A stretch of 64,000 nucleotides of DNA from an uncultured Bacteriovoracaceae bacterium (GCA_964600235.1 CAZRIV010000001.1:286727-350726), one strand, 5' to 3'. Counted from the first letter of the stretch, positions 12,429 to 52,863 are shown. Numbers and translations: made by a program. Notes: a model not told the origin generated them from the sequence alone.

Positions 12429-12437
12429 GTCAGTCAG

Positions 12438-12911: not shown

Positions 12912-12945
12912 AGAGCAATTATCAAACCATACTGTATAAACAGAA

Positions 12946-12972: not shown

Positions 12973-13019
12973 CATGATCGGGCATTAATGTTCTTATGTA
13001 TCATGTCCCCATTCAAGCC

Positions 13020-13715: not shown

Positions 13716-13820
13716 CGGGTAAAGAATTCCGTGAAGTTCGCGCGGAATTGATTTTCTCTTGTACCTGTATAATAGACGAGGATCCGTCGCATTTTCAAGA
13801 TGTTTTATGACCTTTTATGT

Positions 13821-14420
13821 TCAGGTCTTATGGTCTGCAATAAATGTTTTCACTTCGTGGATGATCCCTTCATAAACCGCTTCTCTGTCCCGGCTTGTGT
13901 CGATGATACGAAAACGCTCCTGGCCGGACACGCTCAAAAATGCCTCCCTGAGTTTATGGTGATACGAAAGATCCTTATGCTCGAACCGGTCAGAGGCCCT
14001 GATGCGGGCAAGGGCCAGTTCCGGGTTTACATCCATGAGAAAGGTCAGGTCGGGTTCGATCCAGGTCCTGGTCTGCCGCATGATCCCCTGTACGGTTTCA
14101 CCACCGAGCCCGCCCACAATGCCCTGGTAGACGATCGTGGAATCGACAAACCGGTCCATGACTACTATCCTGCCGCCTTTCAGCCCCGGCTCGATGACCT
14201 CACTTATGTTCTGCCTGCGGGATGCGAGTATGAGGAGAAGCTCGGCCATGACGTCCATTTCATGCTTGAGAAACAATGCCCGTGCCTCTTCTGAAAAACA
14301 AGAGCCGCCCGGCTCTCTTATCGAAAGCCAGGGCAGCCCTTTTATATTCAGGTAGGAGCAGAGCCGGGCAACATTCGTCGACTTGCCGGCACCCTCTCCC
14401 CCTTCAAAGGTGATGATCAC
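13821..14420 (-). CDS. tmk: thymidylate kinase
   Basis: Walker A FEGGEGAGKST with the DRF and lid motifs; 199 aa; 4-nt overlap with ppdK. Confidence 0.9.
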   Translation of the reverse strand: MIITFEGGEGAGKSTNVARLCSYLNIKGLPWLSIREPGGSCFSEEARALFLKHEMDVMAELLLILASRRQNISEVIEPGLKGGRIVVMDRFVDSTIVYQGIVGGLGGETVQGIMRQTRTWIEPDLTFLMDVNPELALARIRASDRFEHKDLSYHHKLREAFLSVSGQERFRIIDTSRDREAVYEGIIHEVKTFIADHKT

Positions 14421-26434: not shown

Positions 26435-27368
26435 GGAGAACTGCCTCTATAATGCTGCCCGGGGCACCATTCTTCGCTATGATCCTGTGCTCAAGGACAT
26501 TCGGCGCAATGCTCATGATATCCCCGGGCGTAACAAAGTCTCTTCCGCTGATAAAGGCCCAGGCCTGTGCCGATCTCTTCAAGGCAAGCCCACCTCTCGG
26601 TGAAACACCCAGTTCCACATCCGGGTGCGTCCGTGTCGCCCTCACCAGCGTGGTTATGTAGGTCAGTATATCCGGATGGGTTTTTACCTGGGCGGTAGCT
26701 TCTATTAAATCAAGTATCTCCTGCCTCTCAATAATCGGGCTCAATCCCAATGCGTCCGTATGGTCTATGTCCTTTCTCAGTATCTCTGTTTCTTCCTCCA
26801 TGGGAGGATAGCCGATATTGGCCTTTATCAGGAACCGGTCCAGCTGGCTTTCCGGCAATGGAAATGTCCCCGCCACCTCCGCGGGATTCTGCGTAGCTAT
26901 CACCATGAAGGGTTCGGGAAGCCTGTAGGTTATACCGTCTATGGTTACCTGGGATTCCTCCATTGCTTCCAGAAGCGCGGACTGCGTCTTTGGAGATGTC
27001 CTGTTGATCTCATCTGCAAGGACGATGCTGGCAAATAACGGACCTTTTACCATGTCAAGGGTTGAAGAGCTCCCCCTGAAGGTATGAAACCCGGTTACAT
27101 CAGAGGGCAGCATGTCATTGGTAAACTGGATTCGCTTGAAGCTCAGGTGTAAAAGCTGGGACAGGGATATGGCAATCAGGGTCTTACCCACCCCCGGAAC
27201 ACCTTCTAGGAGTACATGCCCCCCTGATAAAAGCGCACAGAGTACGCATTTGAGGACATCATCCTGCCCGAGAAACACCTCATGCATCTGCCTGATAAGC
27301 TTCTGGATGAGTGCTTGGCCGTCAGAGTTCTGCATCATTGGTCCTTTGTCTTTATCGGCATCCCTCAC
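26412..27368 (-). CDS. MoxR-family AAA+ ATPase
   Basis: Walker A GVPGVGKT, Walker B LADEINR, and the characteristic ATQNP sensor region. The start may instead be the MMQNS Met at about 27338. Confidence 0.85.
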   Translation of the reverse strand: MRDADKDKGPMMQNSDGQALIQKLIRQMHEVFLGQDDVLKCVLCALLSGGHVLLEGVPGVGKTLIAISLSQLLHLSFKRIQFTNDMLPSDVTGFHTFRGSSSTLDMVKGPLFASIVLADEINRTSPKTQSALLEAMEESQVTIDGITYRLPEPFMVIATQNPAEVAGTFPLPESQLDRFLIKANIGYPPMEEETEILRKDIDHTDALGLSPIIERQEILDLIEATAQVKTHPDILTYITTLVRATRTHPDVELGVSPRGGLALKRSAQAWAFISGRDFVTPGDIMSIAPNVLEHRIIAKNGAPGSIIEAVLHEVKLPL

Positions 27369-32758: not shown

Positions 32759-33091
32759 GTAATGCTCACCTTTCTGAGAAATATTTATAGCCGACAGTCC
32801 GCATACCCGCAAGAACTGCGAATGGTCCTCATCTCCCGTGAATGAAAAGCGTTGCCGCGGCATGGTGTTGCATCCACGGCCGGCCGGCTGTCCTTGATTT
32901 TTCGCTCGAATGTACTAATAAATACCCCTGTAGGTTTCATATACCATATAATGTCTGTTCAAGATTTCTTTCCATAAGGACGATCCTTGTGTTATGAGAT
33001 ACTACAACAGATTCTTGAGGTTCATATGGACATCGGTTCAGACTCCTAGGGGCTATTCTGTCAGGTATCAGAAGGGGGAATAGGGCTCGTC

Positions 33092-33475
33092 ATGGCTAAA
33101 AATCGCATACTCATTATGGATGACGAAGAGCTTATCCTGGACGTTGTGAGCAGCATGCTCGAATACCTGGGATACGAAGTGGAGCTTTCGAGAAACGGAC
33201 ATGAGGCGCTCGATAAATACAGTGCCGCCATGAATGACGGAAAGCCGTTCGGCGCGGTGATCATGGATCTCACCATACCTGGAAGCAGGGGTGGAAAAGA
33301 GGTTATCCAGGATCTCATCAAGATTGACCCTTCGGTGAAGGCCATCGTTTCGAGCGGATACTCGAATGACCCTATCATGTCCAACTGCACCGAATACGGT
33401 TTCAAGGGCGTTGTAAAGAAACCCTTCAAGATGGATGAACTCAGCAACGTCATCGAACTTACCTTAAAGGGCTGA
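33092..33475 (+). CDS. single-domain response regulator (CheY-like receiver)
   Basis: ILIMDDEELIL...VIMDLTIPGSRGG...VSSGY...KKPF receiver signature; 127 aa; GGGGGA RBS. Confidence 0.8.
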   Translation: MAKNRILIMDDEELILDVVSSMLEYLGYEVELSRNGHEALDKYSAAMNDGKPFGAVIMDLTIPGSRGGKEVIQDLIKIDPSVKAIVSSGYSNDPIMSNCTEYGFKGVVKKPFKMDELSNVIELTLKG

Positions 33476-33571
33476 CATACCTCCACCGTCACCTGGAGAG
33501 AAGCTCTCATACGCAGGGCCCTCGGCAGGACAACCAAGGGCCCCGACCTTGCGAACGTAACCGGATCCTTC

Positions 33572-35951: not shown

Positions 35952-36114
35952 CAATCAAAAAGAAATGCAAGAAAATAATGTAAGGAATAGTTCCTGATAA
36001 TAATTTTGTTTACATGAACAATCCCTGGACAACTTAATTGAATACAGCTCGTTGCCCTCAAAGGGGTCTGATCGCTCCCACGCGGCTGAATACCTTCCCT
36101 GTCTCGGTCCGCGC

Positions 36115-37923
36115 TTATTCCTTCTCCTCACGGTACATCCCTTCTATCTCCCTGGAGAAGTTCGCATTTACCACCTTGCGCTTGATCTTGAGCGTAGGGG
36201 TGAGCTCACCGGTTTCGATGCTGAATTCCCTGGAGAGGAGAGTAAACCTGCGGATCTGTTCGACCCTTGCGTATTCCTTCATCAGTGTCTCGAGCTTTTC
36301 GCGGTAGAAGGTCACAATCTCAGGTTTTTTGACCAGGTCTTCGTTCGAGTCGAAAGAAATGCCCTGTTTCTTGGCATAGGTGGTCAGTTCCTTGAAGTTC
36401 GGCACGATCAGAGCGCTGATGAACTTTCTGCCTTCACCGATCACCACGGACTGTTCGATGTACAGGTCGGATACAAGTGTATTCTCGATATTCTGGGGGG
36501 CTATATTTTTTCCGCCCGCGGTGACAATGATGTCCTTCTTCCTGTCCGTGATATATAAACAGCCCCTCTCGTCTATCCTTCCGATATCACCGGTCATGAA
36601 CCAACCGTCTTCATTGAAGACGGCCTTCGTCTCGTCGGGTTTATTGAAGTACCCCCTCATCACCTGCGGTCCTTTGATCAGGATCTCTCCGTCCTGCGCG
36701 ATCATTACTCGGGTATCGGCAAGGGCAGGTCCGACGGAGCCGAATTCAAACACGTCAAACCTGTTCACATTGGTGACCGGGCTTGTTTCCGTGAGGCCAT
36801 ACCCATTGTGCACCGCAACACCTATGCCGTTGAAGAACCGGTCGATCTCCTTGGACAGGGGGCCTCCTCCGCTGATGAAGATCTTGATGCGGTCGAGACC
36901 CAGCGCCGAGCGCATCTTTGAGAACACGACGGCCTCGGCTATATCATACTGTACCCTGATGGCGGGTGGCAGTGGCTTGCGCTGTACCAGGTAATCGACG
37001 GCCCTGTCGGAAACGCCCAGTGCCCATTCAAAAAGCTTCTTTTTCAGGGCAGGTGCCTTATCAGCCTGGGCCTTGATGCCTGAGTAAAGCTTCTCGAAAA
37101 GCCTGGGCACGCTCACCATCAGGGTCGGCCTGGTCTCTTTCATGTTCTCGAGCACGGTGGCAAAACTCTCGGCAAGGTTGATGAGAGCCCCTATGTGTAT
37201 CATGAGATAGAGGGAGACCGTCCTGCCCAGCGAATGGCTCCAGGGGAGCAGGGAAAGCGACTCATCGGCATGGCTTATGAGCGGGTGAGAGGCGTATGCC
37301 TGCAGGACGTTCGCCACAAAGTTGCCGTGGGTGAGCATGACCCCCTTGGGCATTCCGGTCGTGCCGGATGTATAGATGAGGGTGGCAAGACCCTCCGGAT
37401 CGATTGAATTCAACCGCTCCTCGAATACGTATTTATCCTTGAACGCCTCCCCCCGGCGCATCAGTTCATCGAGGGTCAGGATATTGTCTTCAGAAGTGTC
37501 GATTGTGTCGAAGGTTATGATATGCTTCAGGTGCGAGATCCTGTCTTTCATGGAAAGGATCCTGTCCAGATGCTCCTTGTCCGATACGAAAAGCACCTTC
37601 GTACCGGAATCGTTGATGATATAGGCGGCCTCCGCAGCGGAGTTCGTTGCATAGATAGGTGCGGTTGCAGCACCGATGGACAAGGATGCGAGGTCAGCCA
37701 CCATCCACTGCCAGCAATTCTCGGAAAATATCCCCACCATATCCTGTGGATTAATACCCAGCGAGATCAATCCAAGTCCCACCCTGGTGACCATTGAGCG
37801 CATCTCGTTCCAGCTGATGGGGGTGTACCTCCCCTCTTTCTTGTATCTTACAAAGGTCTCATACTGGTAACGTTCCGCCCTGTTGTGGAAAATGCCAGCC
37901 ATGTTTTTTTCAGAGTATCCCAT
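36115..37923 (-). CDS. long-chain fatty acid-CoA ligase (AMP-dependent synthetase/ligase)
   Basis: AMP-binding motifs IYTSGTTGMPKGV and GYGLTETS plus the long-chain acyl-CoA synthetase linker. Start taken at the ATG at 37923 with a GGGGGA RBS; the ORF-track start at 37938 is TTG. Confidence 0.8.
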   Translation of the reverse strand: MGYSEKNMAGIFHNRAERYQYETFVRYKKEGRYTPISWNEMRSMVTRVGLGLISLGINPQDMVGIFSENCWQWMVADLASLSIGAATAPIYATNSAAEAAYIINDSGTKVLFVSDKEHLDRILSMKDRISHLKHIITFDTIDTSEDNILTLDELMRRGEAFKDKYVFEERLNSIDPEGLATLIYTSGTTGMPKGVMLTHGNFVANVLQAYASHPLISHADESLSLLPWSHSLGRTVSLYLMIHIGALINLAESFATVLENMKETRPTLMVSVPRLFEKLYSGIKAQADKAPALKKKLFEWALGVSDRAVDYLVQRKPLPPAIRVQYDIAEAVVFSKMRSALGLDRIKIFISGGGPLSKEIDRFFNGIGVAVHNGYGLTETSPVTNVNRFDVFEFGSVGPALADTRVMIAQDGEILIKGPQVMRGYFNKPDETKAVFNEDGWFMTGDIGRIDERGCLYITDRKKDIIVTAGGKNIAPQNIENTLVSDLYIEQSVVIGEGRKFISALIVPNFKELTTYAKKQGISFDSNEDLVKKPEIVTFYREKLETLMKEYARVEQIRRFTLLSREFSIETGELTPTLKIKRKVVNANFSREIEGMYREEKE

Positions 37924-38374
37924 ATGTCCCCCTCTCAAGGCTTCCTAGGATGTTCCTGAAGTCTCGTGATGTAAGCACCATTGGTCAATCCGGGTCACAC
38001 CCGGCTTATTGCGGAAATACATGCGTATATAGCATAAGGTATCTTAACATGTCCGATCATACCAGGCAGGCATGTAATCGACAGATCATCCGGGCGATGA
38101 GAGCTTGTCCGGCGATTTTCCTGCATGCTGTCTGTCCTGGGCTTTTAAAAGTGTATATCCGATTTTTGAAAGATCAACAAATGTGATTAAACCGTAAGAA
38201 AGGGTCTATGAACCTGTCCATATGCTTGGTTAAGCTCTGCATCCTTTTATGATCGTTCAATTTATTGAACCAGTTCTTGTTGAGACGACCCTGCTTCAAC
38301 CCATGATCGCCTCAATACGCCCATTTCCGGGAGAAATGTTGCCAGGGGTTTTGAAATTCATTATAGTGTCACCG

Positions 38375-39211
38375 ATGAATAATGCATTGAGCATAGACCT
38401 TGAAGAGTATTTCCAGATCCATGCCCTGTCCGGATTGATCGACCCGCAGACCTGGCCGGACTTCCCTTCATCCGTTGAAGAAAATACCGTGAGGATACTG
38501 AACCTCCTCGAGGAGCGCCGGATCCAGACGACCTTCTTCTGCCTCGGATGGATAGCCGAGCATCATCGGGAGGTCATCAGACGGATACACGGCAAGGGCC
38601 ATGAAATAGCGTGTCATGGCTATGCCCATCAGGTCATCTATCAGCAGGACCAGGACAAGTTCCGCAATGATGTGTCGAGGGCCAAGCATATCCTCGAAGA
38701 TATCATCGGGGAGCCTGTGATCGGGTATCGCGCCCCCACCTATTCCATTACGGACCAGACCCTGTGGGCCCTTCATATCCTGGAAGAAGTCGGGTTCCGT
38801 TACGACTCGAGCATCTTCCCCATTTACCATGACAACTACGGCATCCCCGATGCCCCCAGGTTCCCGTATCGCATACCAGACAGCTCCCTGGTGGAGTTCC
38901 CCATATCGACACTCAAGCTGGGTGCCGTGAACATCCCCATATCCGGCGGGGGATATTTCCGGTTCCTGCCCTATTCCCTGACGAGAATCGGGCTGAAGAT
39001 CCTGGCGGGCGGCAACAGGCCCTTTGTCTTCTACATCCATCCCTGGGAGCTGAACCCTGATACGCCGCGGGTCGCCGGGATGGATTTCCGTTCCCGGTTC
39101 CGGACGTATATCGGCATCGAACGTTCATTTCGCAGGTTCTCCAGACTCCTGAGCGATTTCCCCTTCGCCCCCTTAAGGGATGTCCTCAAAGAACAGGGTC
39201 TGCTCACATAG
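38375..39211 (+). CDS. polysaccharide deacetylase family protein, PEP-CTERM/exosortase-locus subfamily-like (DUF3473 C-terminus)
   Basis: N-terminus LSIDLEEYFQ; NodB-like core (TFFCLGWIAEHH..., HGYAH); the extended C-terminal region resembles the TIGR03006-type subfamily. Start taken at the internal Met at 38375. Confidence 0.65.
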   Translation: MNNALSIDLEEYFQIHALSGLIDPQTWPDFPSSVEENTVRILNLLEERRIQTTFFCLGWIAEHHREVIRRIHGKGHEIACHGYAHQVIYQQDQDKFRNDVSRAKHILEDIIGEPVIGYRAPTYSITDQTLWALHILEEVGFRYDSSIFPIYHDNYGIPDAPRFPYRIPDSSLVEFPISTLKLGAVNIPISGGGYFRFLPYSLTRIGLKILAGGNRPFVFYIHPWELNPDTPRVAGMDFRSRFRTYIGIERSFRRFSRLLSDFPFAPLRDVLKEQGLLT

Positions 39212-39222
39212 CCGCTGTCTCC

Positions 39223-41262
39223 TCATGAACCGCTGACCGAAAGGGCCTTCCTGGCCTCATCTCTGGTTTCATAGATGTGGGGCGCAAGCTTTCTCTTCTT
39301 CAGCGCATCACCCAGCTTCATCCTGAGAAACGTGTTGGTCGTGTAGCGGGTTACGCCCGAATAGAATTTCCTTACCACCCGCCTCACCATGGACGTGTAT
39401 TCGTCTACGAGTTCGGGCAGTATGTCGAAATTGTCGTAGTTGACAATGGTATATACCTTCCTGTCCAGGGGGGAGCAGATGCCGCTCACCATGTCCTCTA
39501 TGGCCTGTATGTCTTCCGAGGTTCTGATCCTGTGCCCTTCGAAATTGACAAAGAAGAGGTTCTCCCGTGCATCATAGGTGAGCCGTTCGGCCAGGGAAAG
39601 ATCCGTCATATCGTTCAGGAGGCCCATGGCGGCGGGCCTGAAGATCCTCTGATCCATCAGGCGTGGTTTGTGCTTCATGACAGGTCTGAACGCCATGTGG
39701 GCGAGGATGTCTCTTTCAATATCGATGCCCGGGGCCACCTCAATGAGTTCCATGCCGTTTTGGGTCAGGGAAAACACGCATCTCTCTGTAATGTAGTAAA
39801 CAGGCTGGCCCTTCATCCTCGCATAATGCCCGCTGAAGGTTACCTGCTCCACCTTCCTCAGAAACTTCCTTTGGGTTCCCTCCCGGTCAATGACAAGGTT
39901 CCCGTCCTGTACCGACACTTTCAATCCGTCTGCGGTAAAGGTGCCCACAAAGACCACCTTCCTGGCATTCTGGCTGATGTTGATGAATCCTCCGCAACCG
40001 GCAAGCCTTGTGCCGAACTTGCTCACATTCAGGTTGCCCTCCTCATCGGCCTGGGCCAGCCCCAGAAAACAGCAGTCCAGACCCCCTCCATCGTAGAAGT
40101 CGAACTGGTATGGCTGGTCTATGACGCATTCCGGGTTTGTCGATGCACCGAAACTCAACCCGCCTGCGGGCATACCCCCGATTGTACCGGGTTCGGCTGT
40201 GAGGGTGATGTATTCGAGGATCTTCTCCTCGTTGGCCACAAGCGAAACCCCCTCGGGCATACCGATGCCCAGGTTGATGACGCTGTTGCCCTTCAGTTCG
40301 AAAGCGGCCCTTCTGGCTATGATCTTCCTCGCCCCCATGTCCATGGGGGGCAGAGACTGCATGGGGACCTTCATCTCGGCGCTGTACGCGGGATTATACG
40401 GTTCGACAAAGGTCATGCAGTGATTCTCCGGCCTGGAGAGGATCACACAGTCCACCATTATCCCCGGGATCTTCACCTGCCGGGCATTGAGTGTACCCCT
40501 GTCTGCAATACGCTCGACCTGCACGATCACGAAGCCTCCGGAGTTCTTGGCGGCCATGGCAATGGCCAGGGCCTCGATGGTGAGGGCCTCCTTCTCCATG
40601 GTTATGTTTCCGTCCGTGTCGGCCGTGGTGCCCCTGAGTATGGCCACGTTGACGGGGAATGTCTTGTAGGCGAGGTAATCCTGTCCATCGTACGTGACTA
40701 TTTCCACCAGGTCTTCCCTGCTTCTTTTGTTTACCTTCCCCCCTCCGAAACGCGGATCGATGTAGGTCCACATGCCCACGGTGGTGATGGTCCGCGGCTT
40801 GTGGGCGGCAATGTCCCGGAACATGTGGGAGATGACACCCTGGGGGAGGTTGTAGGCTTCGATCTTGTTCTCCATTGCCAGGGCGCCAAGCTTCGGGGCC
40901 AGACCCCAGTGGCCCCCCACGACCCTTTTGACCAGTCCTTCATGGGCCAGGTGGTTCAGTCCCCTGTCTTTCCCGTCCCCCTGGCCTGCTGCATATACCA
41001 GGGTCAGATCCCTGGGCCTGCCTGTGTCCAGGAAGTGCTCCTCGATCTTGAGGAGGATCTCTTCGGGAACCCCGATGCTGACGAACCCCCCCGTGGCCAC
41101 CGTGTCACCGTCCTGTATCACCTGTACGGCCTCCCGGGCTGAAACGATCTTGCCCTTTCTCATGCGGGAGGGAGGCAATGAGGATAGCATGGGATGGATA
41201 CTTCCTTTCCTGGGCATGGCAACCTCCTGATAATTCTCTATGAGGATTTTAATACGGGGCAC
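39223..41262 (-). CDS. acyl-CoA:acetate/3-ketoacid CoA-transferase, fused alpha/beta subunits (COG4670-like)
   Basis: Family I CoA-transferase halves are both present in one polypeptide of about 650 aa ([11 protein letters not shown]... N-half; ...[12 protein letters not shown]... C-half). Start uncertain, with several in-frame Met codons near the N-terminus. Confidence 0.65.
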
Positions 41263-41314
41263 TCTGAATGGGAATCAGATGCCTGGTCTGATCAATTGCA
41301 GCAACAGGAACCAT

Positions 41315-42289
41315 CTACAACACGAAGGGTATCGAGCCGGGCATCTGCCTCAGATGGGCGGTAGCCCTGGATTTCGAAGTGAAATCCGCATACGCCCGCC
41401 TCACCGCATCGTCGCTTAGACCAAGGACCGATGACGCTTCCGGGACACCAATGCCGTGCTCCCACGCATAGAGAAGGTGGTCGAGCTTGTCAAAGGGGAT
41501 GCGGAAGAAAAACTCCTGGTCGTTAACCGGCAGGCTGAAGGTATCGGGGCTCGGTGAGCGGTTGATGATATCGGCAGTGACACCCAGGTAGCCGGCAAGC
41601 TGGTAGATCTGGTTCTTGTACAGGTGTGCAATCGGCTCGACGTCTGTGCCGCCGTCCCCATACTTGCAGAAATCCCCCAGCAGGTATTCGGTGCGGTTGG
41701 TTGTTCCTGCAACCATGAGGCTGTTCCTTTCCGCCTCATGGTACAGGTGGATCATGCGGGCCCTGATCTTGATGTCCGCAAAGGAGGTGATGGCACGGAA
41801 GGCATCCGCCCCGAGCCGCTTCTTCTTTATGGTGCCGTCCTTCAGCCGCACCTGCAGGACATAGAAGTTGAAGGATTCGCGTTCCAGCAGATCCGTGGGC
41901 AGGGCGATGTTGTAGGTGCAGCCGGGGGTATATTCAGGCATCAGCGTGCTGATGTACTCGTCCCGTTTGGCATAGGACATTACGCTTTCTACCGTGGGGG
42001 TGATATCTGTCTCTTTGAATTCTATACCCATCTTCTCGGCATGTGCCCTGGCATAGCTGCTGCTTATGGGGTTGGACTCCTTTTCAGGCAGGATGATCCC
42101 CCTGACCGACTCCCTGCCTACGGCGCGCACGGCAAGCTCGCTCATCACGGCAGAGTCTATGCCTCCGCTCAGACCCACCACGATCCCGGAACGCTTGTAG
42201 ACCGACTTCACCTGTTCCAGAAGGAATTGTGCTATACGATCTGTCTCAACGACAGGGTCGATGCGTAGAACATCCAGTCCGAATGCCAT
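41315..42289 (-). CDS. nadE: NH3-dependent NAD+ synthetase-like PP-loop ATPase
   Basis: PP-loop GLSGGIDS and the KYGDGGTDVEPI motif align with the E. coli NadE GISGGQDS and KYGDGGTDINPL motifs. Confidence 0.7.
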   Translation of the reverse strand: MAFGLDVLRIDPVVETDRIAQFLLEQVKSVYKRSGIVVGLSGGIDSAVMSELAVRAVGRESVRGIILPEKESNPISSSYARAHAEKMGIEFKETDITPTVESVMSYAKRDEYISTLMPEYTPGCTYNIALPTDLLERESFNFYVLQVRLKDGTIKKKRLGADAFRAITSFADIKIRARMIHLYHEAERNSLMVAGTTNRTEYLLGDFCKYGDGGTDVEPIAHLYKNQIYQLAGYLGVTADIINRSPSPDTFSLPVNDQEFFFRIPFDKLDHLLYAWEHGIGVPEASSVLGLSDDAVRRAYADFTSKSRATAHLRQMPGSIPFVL

Positions 42290-42508
42290 TATGCCTCCCG
42301 TACAATCCGCTGATCAGGATTTCTGAATAATTTATTTATACCAAAATTTCCGCACTGTGTATTGCAAAAGTCCATAGCATGTATTCGTCATATGGCAAGC
42401 TGCCCTTAAAATATTTTCCGTGAGATATTCATTGATCATTCGATAAACTTTGGACTACAAATTGCCGATAGAACCTGCATACAATACCCTTAAAAAGAGG
42501 ATTTATTA

Positions 42509-42760
42509 ATGTCTGAAATAATTACCGTTATCACTCAGTTCATCAGAGAAAATTTCATCGCAGGCAGGAGTGATGTCATCATCGATCCTGACCAGTCACT
42601 CATCGAAAGCGGCATCATGGATTCCACCGGTGTCCTGGAGCTCGTGGAATTCCTGGAATCAACTTATGAGATCAGGGTAGAAGATGAGGAGCTCGTCCCG
42701 GAAAACCTGGAGACCATCAGCAACATCCTGAAATTCCTTCAGACAAAAGGTGTTTCGTAG
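42509..42760 (+). CDS. acyl carrier protein / peptidyl carrier protein
   Basis: 83 aa acidic four-helix pattern with the phosphopantetheine attachment site GIMDSTGVLELVEFLE. Confidence 0.75.
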   Translation: MSEIITVITQFIRENFIAGRSDVIIDPDQSLIESGIMDSTGVLELVEFLESTYEIRVEDEELVPENLETISNILKFLQTKGVS

Positions 42761-44295
42761 TGGCGCACCTGGTCCACGATTTCCTGGAGTTATCCTGCCT
42801 CAGATACCCTGAAAAGACGGCAATTCTGCATGGCGCACAATCCTATACCTTTTCCCAGATAAACAGTCTGTCCAACAAGCTTGCTCACCTCCTGCTCGCT
42901 CACGGTCTCAAGAAGGGTGACAGGGTGCTGGTTATAATGGAAAATTCCTTTGAGAACGTGGCCAGCTACTACGGCATCCTCAAGGCAGGCGGGGTAAGCG
43001 TTGAGATCCACGAGCGCTCCACCCCTTCCGAGGCCTCCTATTATATCCGGAATTCCGGCGCCAGGATCTGCATCCTCTCAGGACTGACTGCCAAGAGGCT
43101 GGACGGGCTGGATATCCCGCTTGTCGTCGCAGGAGAACCCCATGGGGATGACCCATCAAGGAGGCATATCACCTGGGGCGATCTCGATTCCATGCCTGAC
43201 AGCCAGCCATCGGTCAGCCTAGTCGAAGACGATCTTGCGGCCATCGTCTACACCTCGGGCAGCACGGGAAACCCCAAAGGCGTAACGCTGACACACAAGA
43301 ATCTCTGCTCGAACACGGCCTCCATCGTGTCCTACCTGGGGCTGGTCGAAACCGACCGCATCATGGCCGTACTGCCCTTCTATTATGTCTATGGAAAAAC
43401 CCTTCTCAATACCCACTTCATGGTGGGAGGTTCGGTAGTCATCAACAACCGGTTCGCCTTTCCCAACGCAGTGATCAAGGAGATGATTGAAAAGGAGGTT
43501 ACGGGTTTCGCCGGTGTACCTTCCACCTTTGCCATCCTCATGAACCGCTCCATCTTTTCCAAGACCGCAATCCCGACACTGCGCTATGTGACCCAGGCAG
43601 GCGGGGCCATGGCCCCCGCGCTGACCAGAAGGCTCATGGAGCATCTCGGGAACACCGATCTCTTCATCATGTACGGCGCCACCGAGGCCTCTGCCAGGCT
43701 CACCTATCTCCCGCCGGCCAGGCTCAGAAAAGACAAGCTCGGGTCCATCGGCATTCCCATCAGGGATGTCCGGATAACCATCAGGGACGATGCGGGCAAT
43801 GAGGTGAACAATTATGAAGTGGGCAACATCTGCGCCGCCGGGCCGAACATCATGCAGGGCTACTGGCAGGACCCCGAAGAAACGTCCAAATCGCTGAAGC
43901 CGTGGGGTCTGGTCACCGGAGACCTGGGGCACAAGGACGATGAGGGATACATCTTCCTTACCGGCAGGAAAAAGGAGATGCTGAAGATTGGCGGCGAACG
44001 TGTATCCCCCAGGGAGATCGAAGACGCCATCATCGCCTCGGGGCTCGTGCATGAGACATCGGTCATCGGCAGGCCCGATGAACTGCTCTCCGAGGTGCCT
44101 GCGGCATATATCGTCCCCCTGGACGAGAAGACTTTCAACCTGGATGACCTTAAGGCCTTTCTGGCCCAGCGCCTGGCAGGCCACAAGCACCCGGCATTCT
44201 GGTACCTGCGCAAGGCCATGCCGAAAAAACCCTCAGGCAAAATAGACAAGGAGATCTTAAAGAATGAATTACTGTGCGAAATGCGTACTGCCTGA
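42760..44295 (+). CDS. AMP-dependent synthetase/ligase (acyl- or aminoacyl-carrier-protein ligase candidate)
   Basis: Adenylation motifs IVYTSGSTGNPKGV, YGATE and GDLGHKDDEGY; GTG start overlapping the ACP stop codon (TAGTG). Confidence 0.8.
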   Translation: MAHLVHDFLELSCLRYPEKTAILHGAQSYTFSQINSLSNKLAHLLLAHGLKKGDRVLVIMENSFENVASYYGILKAGGVSVEIHERSTPSEASYYIRNSGARICILSGLTAKRLDGLDIPLVVAGEPHGDDPSRRHITWGDLDSMPDSQPSVSLVEDDLAAIVYTSGSTGNPKGVTLTHKNLCSNTASIVSYLGLVETDRIMAVLPFYYVYGKTLLNTHFMVGGSVVINNRFAFPNAVIKEMIEKEVTGFAGVPSTFAILMNRSIFSKTAIPTLRYVTQAGGAMAPALTRRLMEHLGNTDLFIMYGATEASARLTYLPPARLRKDKLGSIGIPIRDVRITIRDDAGNEVNNYEVGNICAAGPNIMQGYWQDPEETSKSLKPWGLVTGDLGHKDDEGYIFLTGRKKEMLKIGGERVSPREIEDAIIASGLVHETSVIGRPDELLSEVPAAYIVPLDEKTFNLDDLKAFLAQRLAGHKHPAFWYLRKAMPKKPSGKIDKEILKNELLCEMRTA

Positions 44296-45265
44296 TACCT
44301 TCCCGGGAATAAGCTTCGATGAATCGGGTGTCTGCAATTACTGCAGAAAGACACCCATTCCCACGCCGGATGAGAAACGTGAACATCTGCAGAAATTCGA
44401 GACGCTCCTGGAACAGAAACGAGGTGCCGGCGGCTATGATGTTCTCCTGGCCTATAGCGGCGGCAAGGATTCGACCTACACCCTGATGATGCTCGCCCGA
44501 ACCTATAAGCTCAAGGTGCTGGCATTCACATTTGATAATGGTTTTGTCTCCGACCAGGCCAAGGTGAACATCATGAAGATGACCGACACCCTGGGTGCCG
44601 CCAGCATATTCTTCAGGCCTCCTTTTGACATGATGAAGCATGTCTTCGGCCTGGCCGCCCGGGAAACCATTTACAGCCCCAAAACCCTGGACAGGGCAAG
44701 CTCCATCTGCACCACCTGCATCGGCATAGTCAAGGCCATGGTCCTGAAGACCGCCCTGGCCTACCACATACCGCTCGTCGCCTACGGGTGGTCACCCGGC
44801 CAGGCGCCCATCGCATCCGCAATCATGCAGACAAACCCCAGGCTCCAGCGTATGTCCGTCCGTTCGGTCAGGGACCCCCTCCTGGCAGTCGCCGGAGATG
44901 GGATAAAACCCTTTTTTCTGAATGAAAACGACCTGTCCGTGCCCTCGGAACGGTGGCCGGTGAATATACATCCCCTGGCCTTCACCGAGTATGATGAGGA
45001 CGAGATCCTCAGGAAGATCGAGGCACTGGGATGGGTAAAACCCGCCGATACCGACCCCAACTCCACCAACTGCCTTTTGAATGCTCTGGCGAACTACATT
45101 CACAGGAAGCGCTTTTCTTTCCACCCGTATGCGTGGGAGATAGCCGGGATCGTCAGGTCCGGATCCATGGACCGCGAAGAGGGACTGCACAAGGTATGTC
45201 AGGATGAAGACATGTCCATGGTCAGGTATGCGGCAGACCTGCTGGGGATAAAAATACCGGATTAA
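44264..45265 (+). CDS. N-acetyl sugar amidotransferase (WbuX/PseA-like PP-loop enzyme, TIGR03573-like)
   Basis: N-terminal zinc-ribbon CAKCVLPD...CNYC, then the PP-loop LLAYSGGKDS. The overall pattern matches the amidotransferases that form sugar acetamidino groups. Confidence 0.7.
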   Translation: MNYCAKCVLPDTFPGISFDESGVCNYCRKTPIPTPDEKREHLQKFETLLEQKRGAGGYDVLLAYSGGKDSTYTLMMLARTYKLKVLAFTFDNGFVSDQAKVNIMKMTDTLGAASIFFRPPFDMMKHVFGLAARETIYSPKTLDRASSICTTCIGIVKAMVLKTALAYHIPLVAYGWSPGQAPIASAIMQTNPRLQRMSVRSVRDPLLAVAGDGIKPFFLNENDLSVPSERWPVNIHPLAFTEYDEDEILRKIEALGWVKPADTDPNSTNCLLNALANYIHRKRFSFHPYAWEIAGIVRSGSMDREEGLHKVCQDEDMSMVRYAADLLGIKIPD

Positions 45266-46311
45266 GGCCTTGATGGGGCAGTGGATTCCCTCTCCTGGCC
45301 GATGAGCCGCACCGGTTCGGCCCCTCTCGTATTGACTTCCTTGAGAAACCTCTTGACGAGGATGTCTTCGGGATCCTTTACCTTCTTGAGCGCCTGGGCG
45401 ACATCGATCTTTCCTGCGGCAAAGGTCTCATGGCCGCCGCCCTTGCCCATGCCCAGGGCGATCTTGTGCGCAAGGACACCGGCCATATAGTTCGTTCTCT
45501 TGGCCCTTATGGAGAAGAGAACGGACCCGTTGTGCCTTCCGTAGCACATGCAGCAGCGTATTCCCTCCAGTTGGATCAGTTCGTCGGCAAACTCCCCTAT
45601 CATCTCGGGCCAGCTGATGACCTCAAGCCTGGCAACGATTGCGTCACCGTATATCCTGGCACTGTTCAGGACGCTGTTGAGTTCCTCAAAGTATTGTATG
45701 GGTTTGTCGGGATGCTCGATACGTGAGAGTTTTTTCTGAAGTATGTGGGGGAAGAGTTGGATCGATGCACGGATGTCCGCATCCGTGGATTGCCTTCCCA
45801 GGTCCCGTGTGTCTGATTTGATTCCATAATACAGGGCTGTTGCCACCTTCCTGTCCATCTCCACGCCTGCGGCGCGCAGATACTGGGTGATGATGGTCGA
45901 CGTGCTCCCCACATCCCTGGGTATGTCCAGGTAATCGGCCTCGAGGGAAGACTTGCGCAGGGGGTGGTGGTCGATGATGATGCTGGGGAAGATCCCTTTG
46001 GGCAGGGACAGGTTCCCGGTATGAGGCTGGCAGTCCACAACCGCCATTACCTTGAAATTCCTTGGGGTTAGCGTATTCAAATGTACAAGGTCTATGTCCA
46101 GGATCTTTACCATGGCCCGATTTTCAGCCCTGCCTATGATCCCGCTGTAGGCAATGACGCCGGTCACGCCTGCGGCCTTTCTGAAGAGATACTTCAATCC
46201 GAAGGCTGCAGCAATACCGTCCGGGTCGGGGTTCTCATGGGTGACGATGAGCACCTTGCGCTTCCCCTTGAGGAGAACAAAGAGTTTCTCGTCCAGTTCC
46301 TGCCTGGTCAT
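45262..46311 (-). CDS. DHH-family phosphoesterase (NrnA-like oligoribonuclease / pAp phosphatase)
   Basis: DHH motif region (VTHENPDPDGI, DHH) and DHHA1 (GGGH); 349 aa. Confidence 0.75.
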   Translation of the reverse strand: MTRQELDEKLFVLLKGKRKVLIVTHENPDPDGIAAAFGLKYLFRKAAGVTGVIAYSGIIGRAENRAMVKILDIDLVHLNTLTPRNFKVMAVVDCQPHTGNLSLPKGIFPSIIIDHHPLRKSSLEADYLDIPRDVGSTSTIITQYLRAAGVEMDRKVATALYYGIKSDTRDLGRQSTDADIRASIQLFPHILQKKLSRIEHPDKPIQYFEELNSVLNSARIYGDAIVARLEVISWPEMIGEFADELIQLEGIRCCMCYGRHNGSVLFSIRAKRTNYMAGVLAHKIALGMGKGGGHETFAAGKIDVAQALKKVKDPEDILVKRFLKEVNTRGAEPVRLIGQERESTAPSRP

Positions 46312-46784
46312 GTCCTGTCCTTGAGGAGGTGATCGATCATATCATATACTTTTGAGCTGTGGGTTCCCTTCCAGTAGATCCTTTTGCAACAGGGACAGCG
46401 GGCAAACCTTTCATGGGTATCGTGCACATAGTCGGGGATAAGGCCTTTGATGAGGTCCTTTGATATATCCATGAGTCTGGTGTTGCAGACACCGCACCGG
46501 GTAAAGGGTTCGCCGATTTCCGTGAGACCGAGCGCCTTGAAAAGCCCCTGCAGCTGTTCGCGTACATGGTCATGCTGAATGTATACAACCCCTGTCATGG
46601 CTTGTGCAACAACCTTTCTTGTCAGAAGGATCCTGTCCTCGGCCATGGCCTGTCGGAGCATCTTCTCGTCCCATCGAGCCATATAGTCGGCATCAAAGCC
46701 CAATATCCTCAACCATCTGGCAAGCTTCCCCAGGTTCTGATCACACAGAAAACGGGGTTGAGGCCCTGAATGCATCCCTGACAT
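46308..46784 (-). CDS. Mut7-C RNase domain protein (DUF82, PIN-like with C-terminal zinc ribbon)
   Basis: RFLCDQNLGKLARWLRILGFD signature and a C-terminal CxxC...CxxC; overlaps the yraN 3' end. Confidence 0.65.
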   Translation of the reverse strand: MSGMHSGPQPRFLCDQNLGKLARWLRILGFDADYMARWDEKMLRQAMAEDRILLTRKVVAQAMTGVVYIQHDHVREQLQGLFKALGLTEIGEPFTRCGVCNTRLMDISKDLIKGLIPDYVHDTHERFARCPCCKRIYWKGTHSSKVYDMIDHLLKDRT

Positions 46785-47118
46785 GGAGCACCTTCCTGTC
46801 CTTGTTCACCGTGATCACATCGAAGCGCATGGGCACCTCGGTCATGTTCTTCGCCTTCAGGTATGCGAGCGACGCCCTGATGATCCGATGCTGTTTCCAC
46901 ACCGGGATCCACCCGATGGGATCCCCGAAGGAAGTGTCCTTTGTGGTGGACTTCACCTCTATGAAAACTATCGTGGAATCATCCTCGGCGATGATGTCGA
47001 TCTCGCTGGAGCGTGCATGGAAATTGACATCGAGAATCCTGTAGCCCTCGTGTGCCAAATAGCTCCTGGCTATCTCTTCTCCGACAGCCCCTTTCTCCCG
47101 GGACGATCTAGGACACAC
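46741..47118 (-). CDS. yraN: YraN-family (UPF0102) putative endonuclease
   Basis: GEEIARSYLAHEGYRIL...EIDIIA...VFIEVK pattern; 125 aa; in the conserved position after rnhB. Confidence 0.7.
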   Translation of the reverse strand: MCPRSSREKGAVGEEIARSYLAHEGYRILDVNFHARSSEIDIIAEDDSTIVFIEVKSTTKDTSFGDPIGWIPVWKQHRIIRASLAYLKAKNMTEVPMRFDVITVNKDRKVLHVRDAFRASTPFSV

Positions 47119-50614: not shown

Positions 50615-51634
50615 TCATTCCACCGGTTTTGCCAGCTTGAGGATCTCCATGGGCAGCTGAGCCCCGATGGCCTGCATCTGCTTGACATCAACGAGGATCA
50701 TGAGATCGTCCTGCTTTAGGATGGGCATTGAATCTGGTTTTGCCCCTTCCTTGAGTATCTTCACCGCCTGCTGTCCGGCCAGCGATCCGATCACCGTGAA
50801 GTCGGAGCCCACATACAGCACGGCCCCGGGGTTCTTGTGCAGCATGAAGCTGATGATGGGTATCTTTGTCGACCTGGAGATGGCTGCAAGCTCGGCGGTG
50901 GGCTCGGCGTTCCTGTGCCCGTAATATGTATCAAGGGGGACGATGAAGGCCTGCACCCCCTTTGCTATGAGCTCCTGGGCCGCCGGCTTGATGGACTCGG
51001 TCCTGTTGATCTCCTTGGTGATGAATGTCAGGCCCTGTGCAGGCCCTTCCTTCTTTGCCTCTGCCGCGTGCGCTATTGCACTGTCATCGTCGCTGTGGAT
51101 AATGCCCAGCGTCTTCACCGAAGGGAACGCCAGCTTCACGATCTTCAGCGCATTCTTCATGTCCATGTGCAGGGTTGAACCGGTGAACCCGGGGCCGGCC
51201 TGGGTGAGGGACTTGCACCCGGCCGCCTGGGGAACGGCCACAGCGGTGAACACCATGGGGATGCCCGCCGAGATGAACTTGTCCTTTGCATATTTTGTCG
51301 GGGTGGTGCCGATGGTGAGGACAAGATCCGGCTTTCTGTCCACCATCTTCTGCGCCTCGCTCTTGATTTCCATGAGCACGCCGACCTTTTTGAACATCCC
51401 GCCCTTTTCAACGTCGAACTCGATGATCTTGCGGTTGATGGAGAGATTCTTCCCTTTGACAATGCCGTTTTTCTCAAGCTCTTTTACGAACCCGTTGTAT
51501 GCATTCTGGAAGGGAGGCGCCTCTCTGACGACCTGAAGGACCTCGATCTTGTAGGTCTTGTCTTCAGCCGTGCAGGGCAGCGCAATTATGAGGAACACGA
51601 CGACCATCACAAGTGACGTAATGAAATGTTTCAT
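50615..51634 (-). CDS. ABC-transporter-type periplasmic substrate-binding protein (COG2984-like), copy 1
   Basis: Signal peptide; 339 aa; paralogous to the adjacent gene along its full length; no permease or ATPase genes nearby. Confidence 0.65.
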   Translation of the reverse strand: MKHFITSLVMVVVFLIIALPCTAEDKTYKIEVLQVVREAPPFQNAYNGFVKELEKNGIVKGKNLSINRKIIEFDVEKGGMFKKVGVLMEIKSEAQKMVDRKPDLVLTIGTTPTKYAKDKFISAGIPMVFTAVAVPQAAGCKSLTQAGPGFTGSTLHMDMKNALKIVKLAFPSVKTLGIIHSDDDSAIAHAAEAKKEGPAQGLTFITKEINRTESIKPAAQELIAKGVQAFIVPLDTYYGHRNAEPTAELAAISRSTKIPIISFMLHKNPGAVLYVGSDFTVIGSLAGQQAVKILKEGAKPDSMPILKQDDLMILVDVKQMQAIGAQLPMEILKLAKPVE

Positions 51635-51843: not shown

Positions 51844-52863
51844 TCATTCCACCGACTGTGCCAGCTGGAGTATCTCCATGGGGAGCTGCCAGTTGAGCGC
51901 CTTCATCTGCCTGGTATCCACCAGGATCCTCAGATCTTCCTGTCTGAGGATAGGCAGGTTTTCCGGCTTGGCCTCCCCCTTGAGAATCTTGGCGGCCTGC
52001 TGGCCTGACAAGGCTCCGATCTCGGTGAAATCCGACCCCACGTAGAGGATCGCACCGGGGACCTTCATGAGGGCGAAGCTGAACACGGGTATCTTCGTCT
52101 CTTTGGAAAACTTATCCAGTTCATGGCATGCCTCGTAGTCCCTTATGCCGTAATAGGTATCCAGCGGTACGGCGATCGCCTCCGCACCCTGCTTCTGGAG
52201 TTCGGCCAGCGAGGGTGTGATCTTATCGTTCTTGTTGTTGATCTGCTTGGAGATGACTTTCATGCCGGATGATGCAGCGACCTTCTTGGCCTCTTCGGTA
52301 TGGGCAATACCGTTCTCGTCATCGCTGTTGATGATGCCGATGGTCTTGAGCTTGGGGAATGCGAGCTTGACGATCTTGAGGGCATCCTTCATGCTCATGT
52401 ACAGCGTGGCCCCGGTGAATCCCGGCCCGGCCTGGGTCATGGACTTGCACCCCGCCGCGGTGGGTATTGCTACTGCGGTAAATACAAGAGGGACGCCCGC
52501 ATCGATGATCTTGTCCTTGGTATACTTGGTTGCAGGTGTTCCGATGGTCAGCACAAGATCAGGCTTCACATCGGCTATCCTCATGGCCTCGCTCTTGAGC
52601 TGCATGAGCACGCCCACCTTGCTCCACATGGTCGCCTTTTCCATGTCGAATCCGATGATCTTGCGTCTGATCTCAAGGTTTTTCCCCTTCACGAAACCGT
52701 TGCGTTCCAGTTCCTTGACAAAGCCTGTGTAGGATTTCTGGAACGGCTCGATGTTGGTGACCTGGATGACCTCTATCCTGATCTTCTTTTCCTCTGCCAG
52801 ACAGGTGGAAGCTGCGCCTATGATAAAGAGCACCATGAACAGAAACACAAGGGATTTTCTCAT
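51844..52863 (-). CDS. ABC-transporter-type periplasmic substrate-binding protein (COG2984-like), copy 2
   Basis: 339 aa; signal peptide; clearly co-linear with copy 1 (for example GVLM..LKSEA...KPDLVLTIGTP.TKY.KDK.I.AG.P.VFTAVA.P.AAGCKS.TQAGPGFTG.TL.M). Confidence 0.65.
   Translation of the reverse strand: MRKSLVFLFMVLFIIGAASTCLAEEKKIRIEVIQVTNIEPFQKSYTGFVKELERNGFVKGKNLEIRRKIIGFDMEKATMWSKVGVLMQLKSEAMRIADVKPDLVLTIGTPATKYTKDKIIDAGVPLVFTAVAIPTAAGCKSMTQAGPGFTGATLYMSMKDALKIVKLAFPKLKTIGIINSDDENGIAHTEEAKKVAASSGMKVISKQINNKNDKITPSLAELQKQGAEAIAVPLDTYYGIRDYEACHELDKFSKETKIPVFSFALMKVPGAILYVGSDFTEIGALSGQQAAKILKGEAKPENLPILRQEDLRILVDTRQMKALNWQLPMEILQLAQSVE

Follow-up and report, generated by a model that had tools for sequence, protein, structure and literature searches.

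Among the described systems closest to the locus analysed here, the NASAT amidotransferases (WbuX, WbpG, PseA and LpNASAT 8WEX; model TIGR03573) carry a tetracysteine motif, CxxC-Xn-[GN]xCxxC, that binds Zn (PMC10607449), and are often encoded in polysaccharide loci. Dlt systems use a stand-alone ANL enzyme that loads a small carrier protein for envelope decoration, and have no PP-loop partner. CtaC (WP_015926605.1), a PP-loop thioamide synthetase with a [4Fe-4S] cluster, has exclusively PCP-bound amides as substrates (PMC6772006). We analysed a 64,000-nucleotide stretch of DNA from an uncultured Bacteriovoracaceae bacterium (the window), in which an ACP, an ANL-family ligase and a PP-loop protein are encoded as a trio (Table 1).

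All six genes that an earlier note on this DNA had described are present where it placed them or close by. The GTG start of the ligase and the TAG stop of the ACP have one base in common and the PP-loop gene overlaps the ligase gene by 32 nt, as had also been reported, the three genes being translationally coupled. The phosphopantetheine attachment site of the ACP is Ser39 within GIMDSTG (codon 42623–42625), while scores of this protein against the NCBIfam ACP models were all under cut-off. The divergent intergenic region presumably carries promoters for both the NadE-like gene and the ACP operon; it contains a single sigma-70-like match (42385–42412, + strand), a number no higher than in shuffled sequence, and an Rfam scan of the region gave zero matches.

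Table 1 Features of the locus, with positions counted from the first nucleotide of the window.
Feature	Position	Strand	Details
FadD11-like long ANL ligase	36115-37938	-	AMP-binding + AMP-binding_C_3; FadD11 385 bits, below cut-off 950
CE4 polysaccharide deacetylase, XrtA/PEP-CTERM-locus type	ORF 38249-39211	+	TIGR03006 363 bits vs cut-off 276.2
Fused alpha/beta CoA-transferase (FadX-like)	39223-41262	-	CoA_trans 110 bits
NadE-like NH3-dependent PP-loop amidating enzyme	41315-42289	-	NF002048 343.3 bits vs cut-off 313
Divergent intergenic region, NadE-like gene/ACP operon	42290-42508	.	219 bp
ACP	42509-42760	+	83 aa; Pfam PP-binding 24.6 bits vs gathering score 20.8
ANL-family adenylating ligase	42760-44295	+	511 aa; AMP-binding 273.7 bits + AMP-binding_C
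PP-loop ATP pyrophosphatase, unnamed clade	44264-45265	+	333 aa; Zn ribbon, PP-loop, three-cysteine site

Relatives of the PP-loop protein are encoded in 219 species representatives, and synteny was counted in the 52 loci with enough flanking sequence, from at least 8 phyla, within 80 related loci overall. The ACP adjoins the PP-loop gene in 51 of these 52 loci and the ligase is present in 48, so that the neighbourhood comparison proposed in the earlier note finds the trio syntenic, in an arrangement far beyond chance expectation. The loci span Thermodesulfobacteriota, Spirochaetota, Omnitrophota, Nitrospirota, Zixibacteria, Ignavibacteria, Terriglobales and others. The components also occur as fusion proteins, with the PP-loop domain joined to the ligase (P0131 and P0183) or to the ACP (P0178), or inserted into NRPS A-domains upstream of the PCP (P0239, P0241, P0244, P0254, P0235 and a Roseovarius NRPS). 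The ACP–ligase–PP-loop trio is thus a real, conserved and tightly linked cassette. The earlier note recognised no described pathway for it, and we likewise found no name or description of the trio in any curated family or in the literature searched.

In the reading of the earlier note, the third gene codes for an amidine-forming amidotransferase of the WbuX/PseA type, and a Dlt-like ACP–ligase pair supplies a surface glycan with an acyl or aminoacyl group. The PP-loop protein does share with NASATs a similar length, a CxxC...GxCxxC Zn ribbon at the N-terminus (C4, C7, G22, C24 and C27, invariant in this protein and in 109 divergent representatives) and the SGGxDS motif (S65GGKDS70). It also has an LpNASAT-like three-dimensional fold, its overall fold being nearest to that of the amidine-forming enzyme and not to a thiolase, and TIGR03573 is its best NCBIfam match; furthermore, the cassette lies amid polysaccharide genes in several phyla, and AsnB adjoins genuine NASATs too. 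However, its TIGR03573 score is 136.1 bits against a cut-off of 203.2, and ten divergent relatives bearing the cysteine triad discussed below also remain under that cut-off (82–189 bits); no Pfam model attains its gathering score on the protein. In the reverse test, genuine NASATs scored 64–72 bits on the PP-loop family profile, matching at the N-terminus only. Neither HisH nor HisF2, the ammonia-delivery partner of NASATs, was found by tblastn of the window and 80 related loci (L001–L081), but they do occur at two (L083 and L084) of the three genuine NASAT loci retrieved. Unlike NASATs, the PP-loop family is nearly always accompanied by an ACP and usually by an ANL ligase, is found fused to ligases and ACPs and within NRPS modules, and has three extra near-invariant cysteines, a triad missing in LpNASAT and in three PGAP-named NASATs. 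The third gene was therefore rejected as a bona fide WbuX/PseA amidotransferase on its sub-cut-off TIGR03573 score, its lack of HisH/HisF2 and its extra three-cysteine site, and we consider the amidine reading unlikely.

The Dlt-like half of that reading fares no better. In an alignment with LgrA, the alpha-amino-binding Asp235 of NRPSs corresponds to Val210 of the ligase (in PFYYVYG), and 56 cassette ligases divide at this position into 30 with V, 14 with S and 12 with D; the A10 lysine is retained. The idea of Dlt-like aminoacyl transfer fails because the ligase lacks the alpha-amino-binding Asp of amino-acid activators, and the pocket residues, which the earlier note had proposed as a guide to specificity, argue through Val210 against an aminoacyl substrate. 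The ACP scores 26 and 21 bits on the DltC models (cut-offs 68 and 52), and no match to MBOAT (DltB) or DltD was found among the scanned and annotated ORFs of the window. We accordingly discarded a DltA/DltC-like system, and predict from the alignment that the ligase loads a carboxylic acid other than an alpha-amino acid onto the ACP.

The cysteine triad of the PP-loop protein (C149, C152 and C270) is 97–99% conserved in the 109 divergent representatives, equal to the PP-loop itself, with no conserved fourth ligand beside it in the same set. In alignments the family CxxC falls on PPCSYCG, the cluster-binding motif of the Fe-S TtuA of P. horikoshii (5MKO), and TtuA and the Fe-S LarE ranked ahead of ArtA and QueC in comparisons with the PP-loop protein. 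The three-cysteine site probably holds a [4Fe-4S] cluster, as these motifs moderately suggest, although it may be a structural Zn site, and the presence of the family in aerobes (Bacillus, Roseovarius, Streptomyces and Ralstonia) sits less comfortably with an oxygen-labile cluster. A general, untargeted survey of neighbours showed no sulfur-donor gene prominent among the recurrent families, and the CtaC cluster likewise has none. The PP-loop enzyme could instead be a QueC/ArtA-like nitrile synthetase that dehydrates, on the ACP, a primary amide made by NadE or AsnB; PGAP calls the B. thuringiensis homologue a 7-cyano-7-deazaguanine synthase, and an amide-forming enzyme often partners the cassette. 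We regard this as highly improbable given the QueC-model matches on relatives, which reach 22–26 bits against a cut-off of 150, together with the TtuA and LarE ranking and the alignment of the family CxxC with TtuA Fe-S ligands.

Membership of the remaining genes is more variable. The fused CoA-transferase, with subunit-A-like residues 36–277 and subunit-B-like residues 312–442, scores 434 bits on the FadX model (below its cut-off of 750) and has a counterpart in only 1 of the 80 related loci (L003). It represents a lineage-specific insertion, probably outside the system. The FadD11-like ligase occurs in 11 of the 52 loci, almost all in a Desulfomonilia-type clade, and it is doubtful whether it plays a part in the system; DHH, Mut7-C and rnhB genes are conserved only in that clade. 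The NadE-like gene, whose product has a conserved insertion of ~65 aa relative to 2E18, adjoins the cassette in 19 of the 52 loci, and an AsnB-like neighbour is found in 17, the two occurring together in only 1 (Fisher p = 0.0017, with loci taken as independent and phylogeny ignored). The NadE-like gene lies within the operon at L063, L066, L068, L077, L078, L080 and L091, with six distant loci placing it between the ligase and PP-loop genes and L091 carrying a homologue 68% identical to the NadE-like protein inside ACP-AsnB-NadE-ligase. Its proximity to the trio, on which the earlier note had remarked, thus extends to several phyla, and it probably provides a cassette-linked carboxylate-to-carboxamide step. 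Nevertheless, the protein may simply be the housekeeping NAD synthetase, since three of the four close homologues sampled stand alone (L088–L090).

We also weighed the possibility that all the neighbours are functionally unrelated, NadE being the cell's essential NAD synthetase while lineage synteny alone keeps separate housekeeping or catabolic genes (for the deacetylase, the CoA-transferase and the FadD11-like ligase) together. Synteny and fusion proteins exclude this for the core trio, and the intra-operon NadE genes and the recurrence of the deacetylase in distant phyla count against it elsewhere. It is consistent with the near absence of the CoA-transferase from related loci, the restriction of the FadD11-like, DHH, Mut7-C and rnhB genes to one clade, the stand-alone NadE homologues and the clearance by NadE of the curated NAD synthase model, and for the neighbours we keep it as a serious possibility.

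The surface-glycan setting proposed in the earlier note holds in part. The deacetylase, for which a gene caller applied to the identical contig places the start at ~38339 (290 aa; domains Polysacc_deac_1 and DUF3473), has TIGR03006 counterparts no more than 6 kb from the PP-loop gene in 20 of the 52 loci, distant phyla included, and accompanies the cassette often but not obligatorily. Polysaccharide and amino-sugar genes are often nearby in other phyla: distant loci contain WecB, TviB-like, GalE, FemAB-like, RmlA and GT2 genes, L092 has DegT, Gfo/Idh/MocA and glycosyltransferase genes, L087 has a flippase and a cytidylyltransferase, and the Roseovarius NRPS gene lies between flippase and nonulosonate-type genes. 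The window itself departs from this picture, with no glycosyltransferase, exosortase or flippase among the ~50 ORFs scanned and no PEP-CTERM gene found, and no acyltransferase is linked to the trio in all loci. A glycan destination of the acyl group is plausible and weakly suggested by these neighbours. The same chemistry could serve a diffusible small molecule or lipid, such as a thioamide metallophore or an antibiotic, in place of a glycan substituent. The missing glycosyltransferase and flippase fit such a product, as do the B. thuringiensis plasmid homologue, whose type-II PKS/FAS-like cluster includes thioesterase, PPTase and AsnB genes, the terminal TE domains of the NRPS modules with an embedded PP-loop domain, and the antibiotic product of CtaC. 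We nonetheless judge a diffusible product rather unlikely, with the adjoining TIGR03006 deacetylase, the nucleotide-sugar enzymes, FemAB-like proteins and glycosyltransferases of many distant loci and the setting of the Roseovarius NRPS all pointing the other way.

Beyond what is observed here, namely the gene anatomy, the synteny across loci, the fusion proteins, the fold and the conserved motifs, we tentatively favour a reading in which the ACP, its ligase and the PP-loop protein together make up a sulfur-inserting thiotemplate tailoring module. The ANL ligase would adenylate a non-alpha-amino carboxylic acid and load it, in thioester form, at Ser39 of the ACP, after which the PP-loop enzyme would adenylate a carbonyl oxygen on the ACP-bound group, and sulfur would most likely replace the adenylated oxygen to give a thioamide or thioacid, nitrogen (and hence an amidine) being less likely. 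Amide supply would fall to the NadE-like enzyme here and to AsnB-like enzymes in other lineages, which probably first convert a free carboxylate to a carboxamide. The finished acyl group would probably be passed to a glycan amine in many lineages, and the CE4 deacetylase could expose such an amine. Carrier dependence of the PP-loop enzyme is strongly suggested, sulfur insertion by it moderately so, and an amide precursor weakly.

Several described systems share parts of this organisation. As in XrtA/PEP-CTERM loci, the deacetylase passes TIGR03006, related loci encode a FemAB-like protein that passes TIGR03019 along with AsnB-like proteins near the amidotransferase model TIGR03108, and the second-best model of the ligase is the exosortase-associated TIGR03098; at L091, and seen only there, ACP-AsnB-NadE-ligase is coupled to an exosortase fusion protein. 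The likeness is incomplete, as an AsnB-like representative (472 vs 817 bits) and the ligase (364.5 vs 592 bits) both fall under their cut-offs, and for the PP-loop component we found no NCBIfam model. OxyD is reportedly an AsnB-type enzyme that amidates a carrier- or CoA-bound dicarboxylate to give a malonamyl starter unit, and in the RfbK-O tetronate system of V. cholerae O1 the O-antigen locus reportedly encodes an ACP and an AMP-ligase that make an uncommon N-acyl substituent for an amino sugar. Neither the OxyD nor the RfbK-O system is known to contain a PP-loop/Fe-S-type enzyme.

The sulfur-inserting enzymes TtuA, TtcA, NcsA and [4Fe-4S] LarE have in common with the PP-loop protein a CxxC (aligned in TtuA) and a third, distal cysteine, and TtuA, like the family, has an N-terminal Zn finger. 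They differ in that alignment is limited to the Rossmann core (~170–180 residues), the C-terminal half of the family follows NASAT, and their substrates are tRNA or a nicotinate cofactor and not acyl-ACP. CtaC differs too, in that it belongs to an antibiotic pathway and not to a glycan locus, and the amides it thionates are those in the backbone of a poly-beta-alanine peptide. Compared through primer-derived peptides only, of which just the one covering the PP-loop has matches in the family, its PICFFCG looks more TtuA-like than the SICTTCIG of the family. Like the PP-loop protein, CtaC is a PP-loop (AANH) enzyme in which an ATP motif is accompanied by a CxxC...C triad (PMC6772006), the D/S-CxxC-C spacing being 77/3/127 residues in CtaC and 80/3/118 in the PP-loop protein. 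It needs a carrier-tethered substrate, its gene adjoins those for an ANL-type loader and a carrier protein, and NRPSs are found close to its homologues, most of which come from anaerobes. By analogy, CtaC appears to be the closest working counterpart of the PP-loop protein.

All six genes singled out by the earlier note were recovered by open reading frame (ORF) listing and family scans (table below). Three of them, encoding an ACP, an ANL ligase and a PP-loop protein, are tightly packed: the TAG of the ACP gene and the GTG of the ligase gene have one base in common, and the ligase and PP-loop genes overlap by 32 nt. The deacetylase probably starts at ~38339, which is the gene caller's choice on an identical public contig, and the CoA-transferase is a fusion of a subunit-A-like region (residues 36-277) and a subunit-B-like region (residues 312-442). 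The remaining genes of the window are housekeeping genes (nrdD/nrdG, lptFG, aroB/aroC, ppdK, rnhB, trmD, rimM, uvrA, mfd and tilS), with no glycosyltransferase, flippase or exosortase among the window ORFs in family scans, and the nearest relatives of the window are Desulfomonilia-type MAGs. An Rfam scan of 36000-47000 gave 0 matches; promoter-like sites did not exceed their frequency in shuffled sequence, and terminator-like sites fell below it.

Genes of the cassette and its neighbours in the window, with scores against family models
Feature	Coordinates	Strand	Family match
Polysaccharide deacetylase	38249-39211	+	TIGR03006 363 bits (cut-off 276)
Fused CoA-transferase	39223-41262	-	FadX model 434 bits (below cut-off 750)
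NadE-like protein	41315-42289	-	NF002048 343 bits (cut-off 313)
ACP, 83 aa	42509-42760	+	Pfam PP-binding 24.6 bits (gathering 20.8)
ANL ligase, 511 aa	42760-44295	+	AMP-binding 273.7 bits; TIGR03098 364 bits (below cut-off 592)
PP-loop protein, 333 aa	44264-45265	+	TIGR03573 136 bits (below cut-off 203)

Elsewhere in the window, a butyryl-CoA:acetate-type CoA-transferase region (residues 2-421) is followed by a Pat-like acetyltransferase region at the C-terminal end (448-592) in a 647-aa protein (61574-63517, -), and uvrA is adjoined by tandem paralogous ABC substrate-binding proteins (PF04392) of 339 aa each (50615-51634 and 51844-52863, both -). Three minus-strand genes in series (23683-27368) encode a MoxR-type AAA+ ATPase (26412-27368), a 307-aa ORF without annotation (25511-26434) and a transglutaminase/TgpA-like membrane protein (23683-25644). 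Minus-strand ORFs of 366 aa (10500-11600), 565 aa (17329-19026) and 158 aa (33061-33537, flanked by nrdG and nrdD) matched nothing in Pfam or NCBIfam at the thresholds used.

An alignment of PP-loop homologues (A1) led to relatives in 219 species-representative genomes; 80 loci were fetched and compared by tblastn and ORF clustering, with neighbour counts taken from the 52 loci with enough flank. The ACP gene adjoins the PP-loop gene in 51 of these 52 loci and the ligase gene does so in 48, across Thermodesulfobacteriota, Spirochaetota/Leptospirales, Omnitrophota, Nitrospirota, Zixibacteria, Ignavibacteria, Terriglobales, Geobacteraceae and others. The earlier note asked whether the ACP, ligase and amidotransferase triplet is a conserved cassette, and these neighbourhoods show that the trio is one. 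Most loci have the order ACP-ligase-PP-loop and those of Spirochaetota ACP-(x)-PP-loop-ligase, a variation that points to selected linkage and not to synteny kept by descent. The CoA-transferase occurs in only one other related locus, and the FadD11-like ligase, DHH, Mut7-C and rnhB genes are conserved only within the window's own clade. Literature searches on WbuX with ACP, PP-loop with ACP, AANH in A-domains and PEP-CTERM with ACP and ligase brought up no account of the cassette. A ~286-aa secreted protein (cluster c13), whose GDSL/SGNH-like match is weak (17.7 bits, below gathering) and which has no NCBIfam model, lies beside the cassette in 11 of the 52 loci (c13 loci: L033-L038, L069, L072, L075, L076, L079, L081); in Spirochaetota its gene is on the opposite strand, between the ACP and PP-loop genes.

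The PP-loop protein, whose AF2 model is confident (pLDDT 91.9), carries both motifs that define N-acetyl sugar amidotransferases (NASATs), namely CxxC...GxCxxC (C4, C7, C24 and C27) and SGGKDS, a PP-loop motif of the SGGxDS type (PMC10607449). However, the window protein and ten divergent relatives score below the TIGR03573 cut-off, and in the reverse test three plasmid NASATs named by PGAP reached 64-72 bits on the PP-loop profile, over the N-terminus only; on the same profile a Bacillus homologue scores 322 bits and an NRPS-embedded domain 119 bits. Whereas the NASAT loci of Agrobacterium and Spirosoma contain HisH and AglZ/HisF2, tblastn detected neither HisH nor HisF2/AglZ in the window or the 80 related loci. 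A cysteine triad, C149-x-x-C152 plus C270, is conserved in 97-99% of 109 divergent full-length PP-loop representatives, a level otherwise reached only by the Zn cysteines, the PP-loop and seven other positions, and all three cysteines are missing from LpNASAT (8WEX) and the three plasmid NASATs. In the broader profile A3, the CxxC of the family aligns with PPCSYCG of the Fe-S-cluster enzyme TtuA of P. horikoshii (5MKO), and we take the two cysteines of that TtuA motif to be cluster ligands. A conserved fourth ligand (His, Asp or Cys) is lacking in the 109 representatives, as would be expected more of a [4Fe-4S] cluster on three cysteines than of a structural Zn site. The protein appears to combine a NASAT fold with a probable Fe-S site, and the WbuX/PseA-type amidotransferase of the earlier note sits poorly with the below-cut-off score, the lack of a HisH/HisF2 partner and the extra triad. 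Amidine formation, which the shared NASAT motifs would favour and these three features would not, is a rival to the sulfur chemistry preferred here, as is nitrile formation.

Searched by profile, 1.84 billion cluster representatives (50% identity) yielded 488 matches at E <= 1e-30, several of them multi-domain proteins. P0131 (35% identity to the window ligase and 43% to the window PP-loop protein) and P0183 are ligase and PP-loop fusions, and P0178 joins an ACP to the PP-loop protein. The PP-loop domain, cysteine triad included, also occurs inside NRPS A-domains, between the Pfam AMP-binding core and AMP-binding_C and followed by a PCP (P0239, a C-A[PP-loop]-PCP-TE protein; P0241; P0244; P0254; and P0235, which has N-terminal rSAM/B12 domains), and no published description of this domain type interrupting NRPS A-domains was found. 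A 2682-aa plasmid NRPS of Roseovarius pelagicus (L087:6418-14466), with a flippase and a cytidylyltransferase adjacent, likewise carries the domain. By their domain composition, these fusions link the PP-loop enzyme with carrier-based chemistry. The B. thuringiensis HD1002 plasmid NZ_CP009349 encodes a homologue with 38% identity to the window protein within a type-II PKS/FAS-like cluster (L082:10843-24963) comprising an alpha/beta hydrolase, ACP, the PP-loop gene, two ANL ligases, two PCPs, KS/CLF, FabG, FabZ, TE, AsnB, PPTase and rSAM, and this cluster provides a cultivable model for the family. The label of this homologue, 7-cyano-7-deazaguanine synthase (QueC), is a misnaming. A Ralstonia megaplasmid match was set aside; it covers the N-terminal part only, and the triad region is missing in the profile alignment. 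With 488 representatives at this threshold and close relatives in the 219 species representatives, the family is widespread; its members are labelled hypothetical, TilS/MesJ or QueC, no curated Pfam or NCBIfam model matches it at cut-off, and the window protein meets no Pfam gathering score.

The top PDB matches of the window ligase are NRPS A-domains and acyl-CoA synthetases. Val210 (PFYYVYG) aligns with the alpha-amino-binding Asp position, and of 56 cassette ligases 30 have V there, 14 have S and 12 have D. The window ligase therefore probably loads a non-amino carboxylic acid, and the substrate probably differs between clades. The partner ACP has its motif serine, in GIMDSTG, at Ser39. Val210, the DltC scores and the absence of DltB and DltD all speak against the DltA/DltC-like carrier chemistry envisaged earlier. 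An OlsHI lead was also dropped: the best NCBIfam match of the ACP, "ACP_for_OlsHI", reached 42 bits against a cut-off of 130, and the GH3-like enzyme of the OlsH pathway is absent.

Within 6 kb of the PP-loop gene, a NadE-like gene is present in 19 of the 52 loci and an AsnB-like gene (~650 aa; TIGR01536 511 bits) in 17, with both in a single locus (Fisher's exact p = 0.0017 for exclusivity, kinship ignored). Six distant loci have an ACP-ligase-NadE-PP-loop operon. The fetched locus L091 holds an ACP-AsnB-NadE-ligase-NadE2 operon (4506-14386) without a PP-loop gene, in which one NadE-like protein is 68% identical to that of the window and the second paralogue 41%, followed by a 654-aa NTP-transferase/hexapeptide and Exosortase_EpsH fusion and then a Bac_transf sugar transferase. 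On our reading, the cassette would require a carboxylate-to-carboxamide step that either a NadE-like or an AsnB-like enzyme could supply. The window NadE-like protein passes the curated NAD synthase model, its family is highly conserved (66-94% identity among the best 120 matches), and of four close homologues sampled, three occur on their own; a plain housekeeping role in the window organism seems to us an evenly balanced possibility. No LarE-like catalytic cysteines are conserved in the protein. Relative to P. horikoshii NadE (2E18), the protein has a conserved ~65-residue insertion at residues ~105-170.

The TIGR03006 deacetylase lies near the cassette in 20 of the 52 loci, and distant loci also hold WecB, a TviB-like dehydrogenase, GalE, RmlA, GT2, hexapeptide acetyltransferases and a FemAB-like protein passing TIGR03019; beside the fusion gene of P0183 are a PPTase, Gfo/Idh/MocA, a DegT aminotransferase and a glycosyltransferase. 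The recurrence of the deacetylase and these amino-sugar and glycan neighbours favour N-acylation of an amino sugar as the destination. The rival, a non-glycan product, would draw on the Bacillus cluster and the NRPS forms, which place the enzyme in small-molecule pathways; no glycan-assembly genes were found in the window, and among the related loci the trio has no universal acyltransferase partner. From the earlier interpretation, carrier-linked tailoring in an undescribed pathway with frequent glycan context stands, while the enzyme identity and the Dlt analogy do not.

We infer the whole of the cassette chemistry. In the reading we prefer, which we place a little short of an even chance, an ACP-tethered acid would be the substrate of the PP-loop enzyme, and this NASAT-fold protein with its probable Fe-S site would most likely exchange O for S. 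Only tentatively, and as one joint proposal, we suggest that the window protein may belong to a large unnamed clade of [4Fe-4S]-dependent sulfur insertases with a NASAT fold that act on carrier-bound acyl substrates. The stand-alone form, accompanied by an ACP, an ANL ligase and an amidating enzyme, would build substituents with a thioamide or thioacid for surface glycans, mostly in anaerobes, and the second form would be an undescribed tailoring domain interrupting NRPS A-domains. In that case thio-modified glycans, and many nonribosomal peptides with thioamides, would still await discovery. Confirmation of the chemistry would give a starting point for the mining of thio- or amidino-modified glycans and peptides and would correct a systematic misannotation.

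Closthioamide biosynthesis involves CtaC, a [4Fe-4S]-containing PP-loop enzyme whose ATP motif includes D77 and S78 and whose cluster cysteines are C154, C157 and C284. CtaC turns amide into thioamide only on a substrate tethered to the carrier protein CtaE, and CtaC homologues, mostly from anaerobes, are encoded close to thiotemplate enzymes (PMC6772006). Concatenated CtaC primer-derived peptides used as a query gave 0 matches, as did two degenerate DNA scans of metagenome contigs for CtaC. Compared by motif positions alone, the spacing is 77/3/127 residues in CtaC and 80/3/118 in the window protein, and by analogy CtaC is the closest working analogue of the latter. To our knowledge, CtaC is the one characterised case of thiotemplated sulfur insertion by a PP-loop/Fe-S enzyme, and NASAT amidine formation on sugars has never been tied to a carrier protein. 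The PP-loop family described here would bridge these two systems, CtaC-type thiotemplated sulfur insertion and NASAT-type sugar amidine formation.
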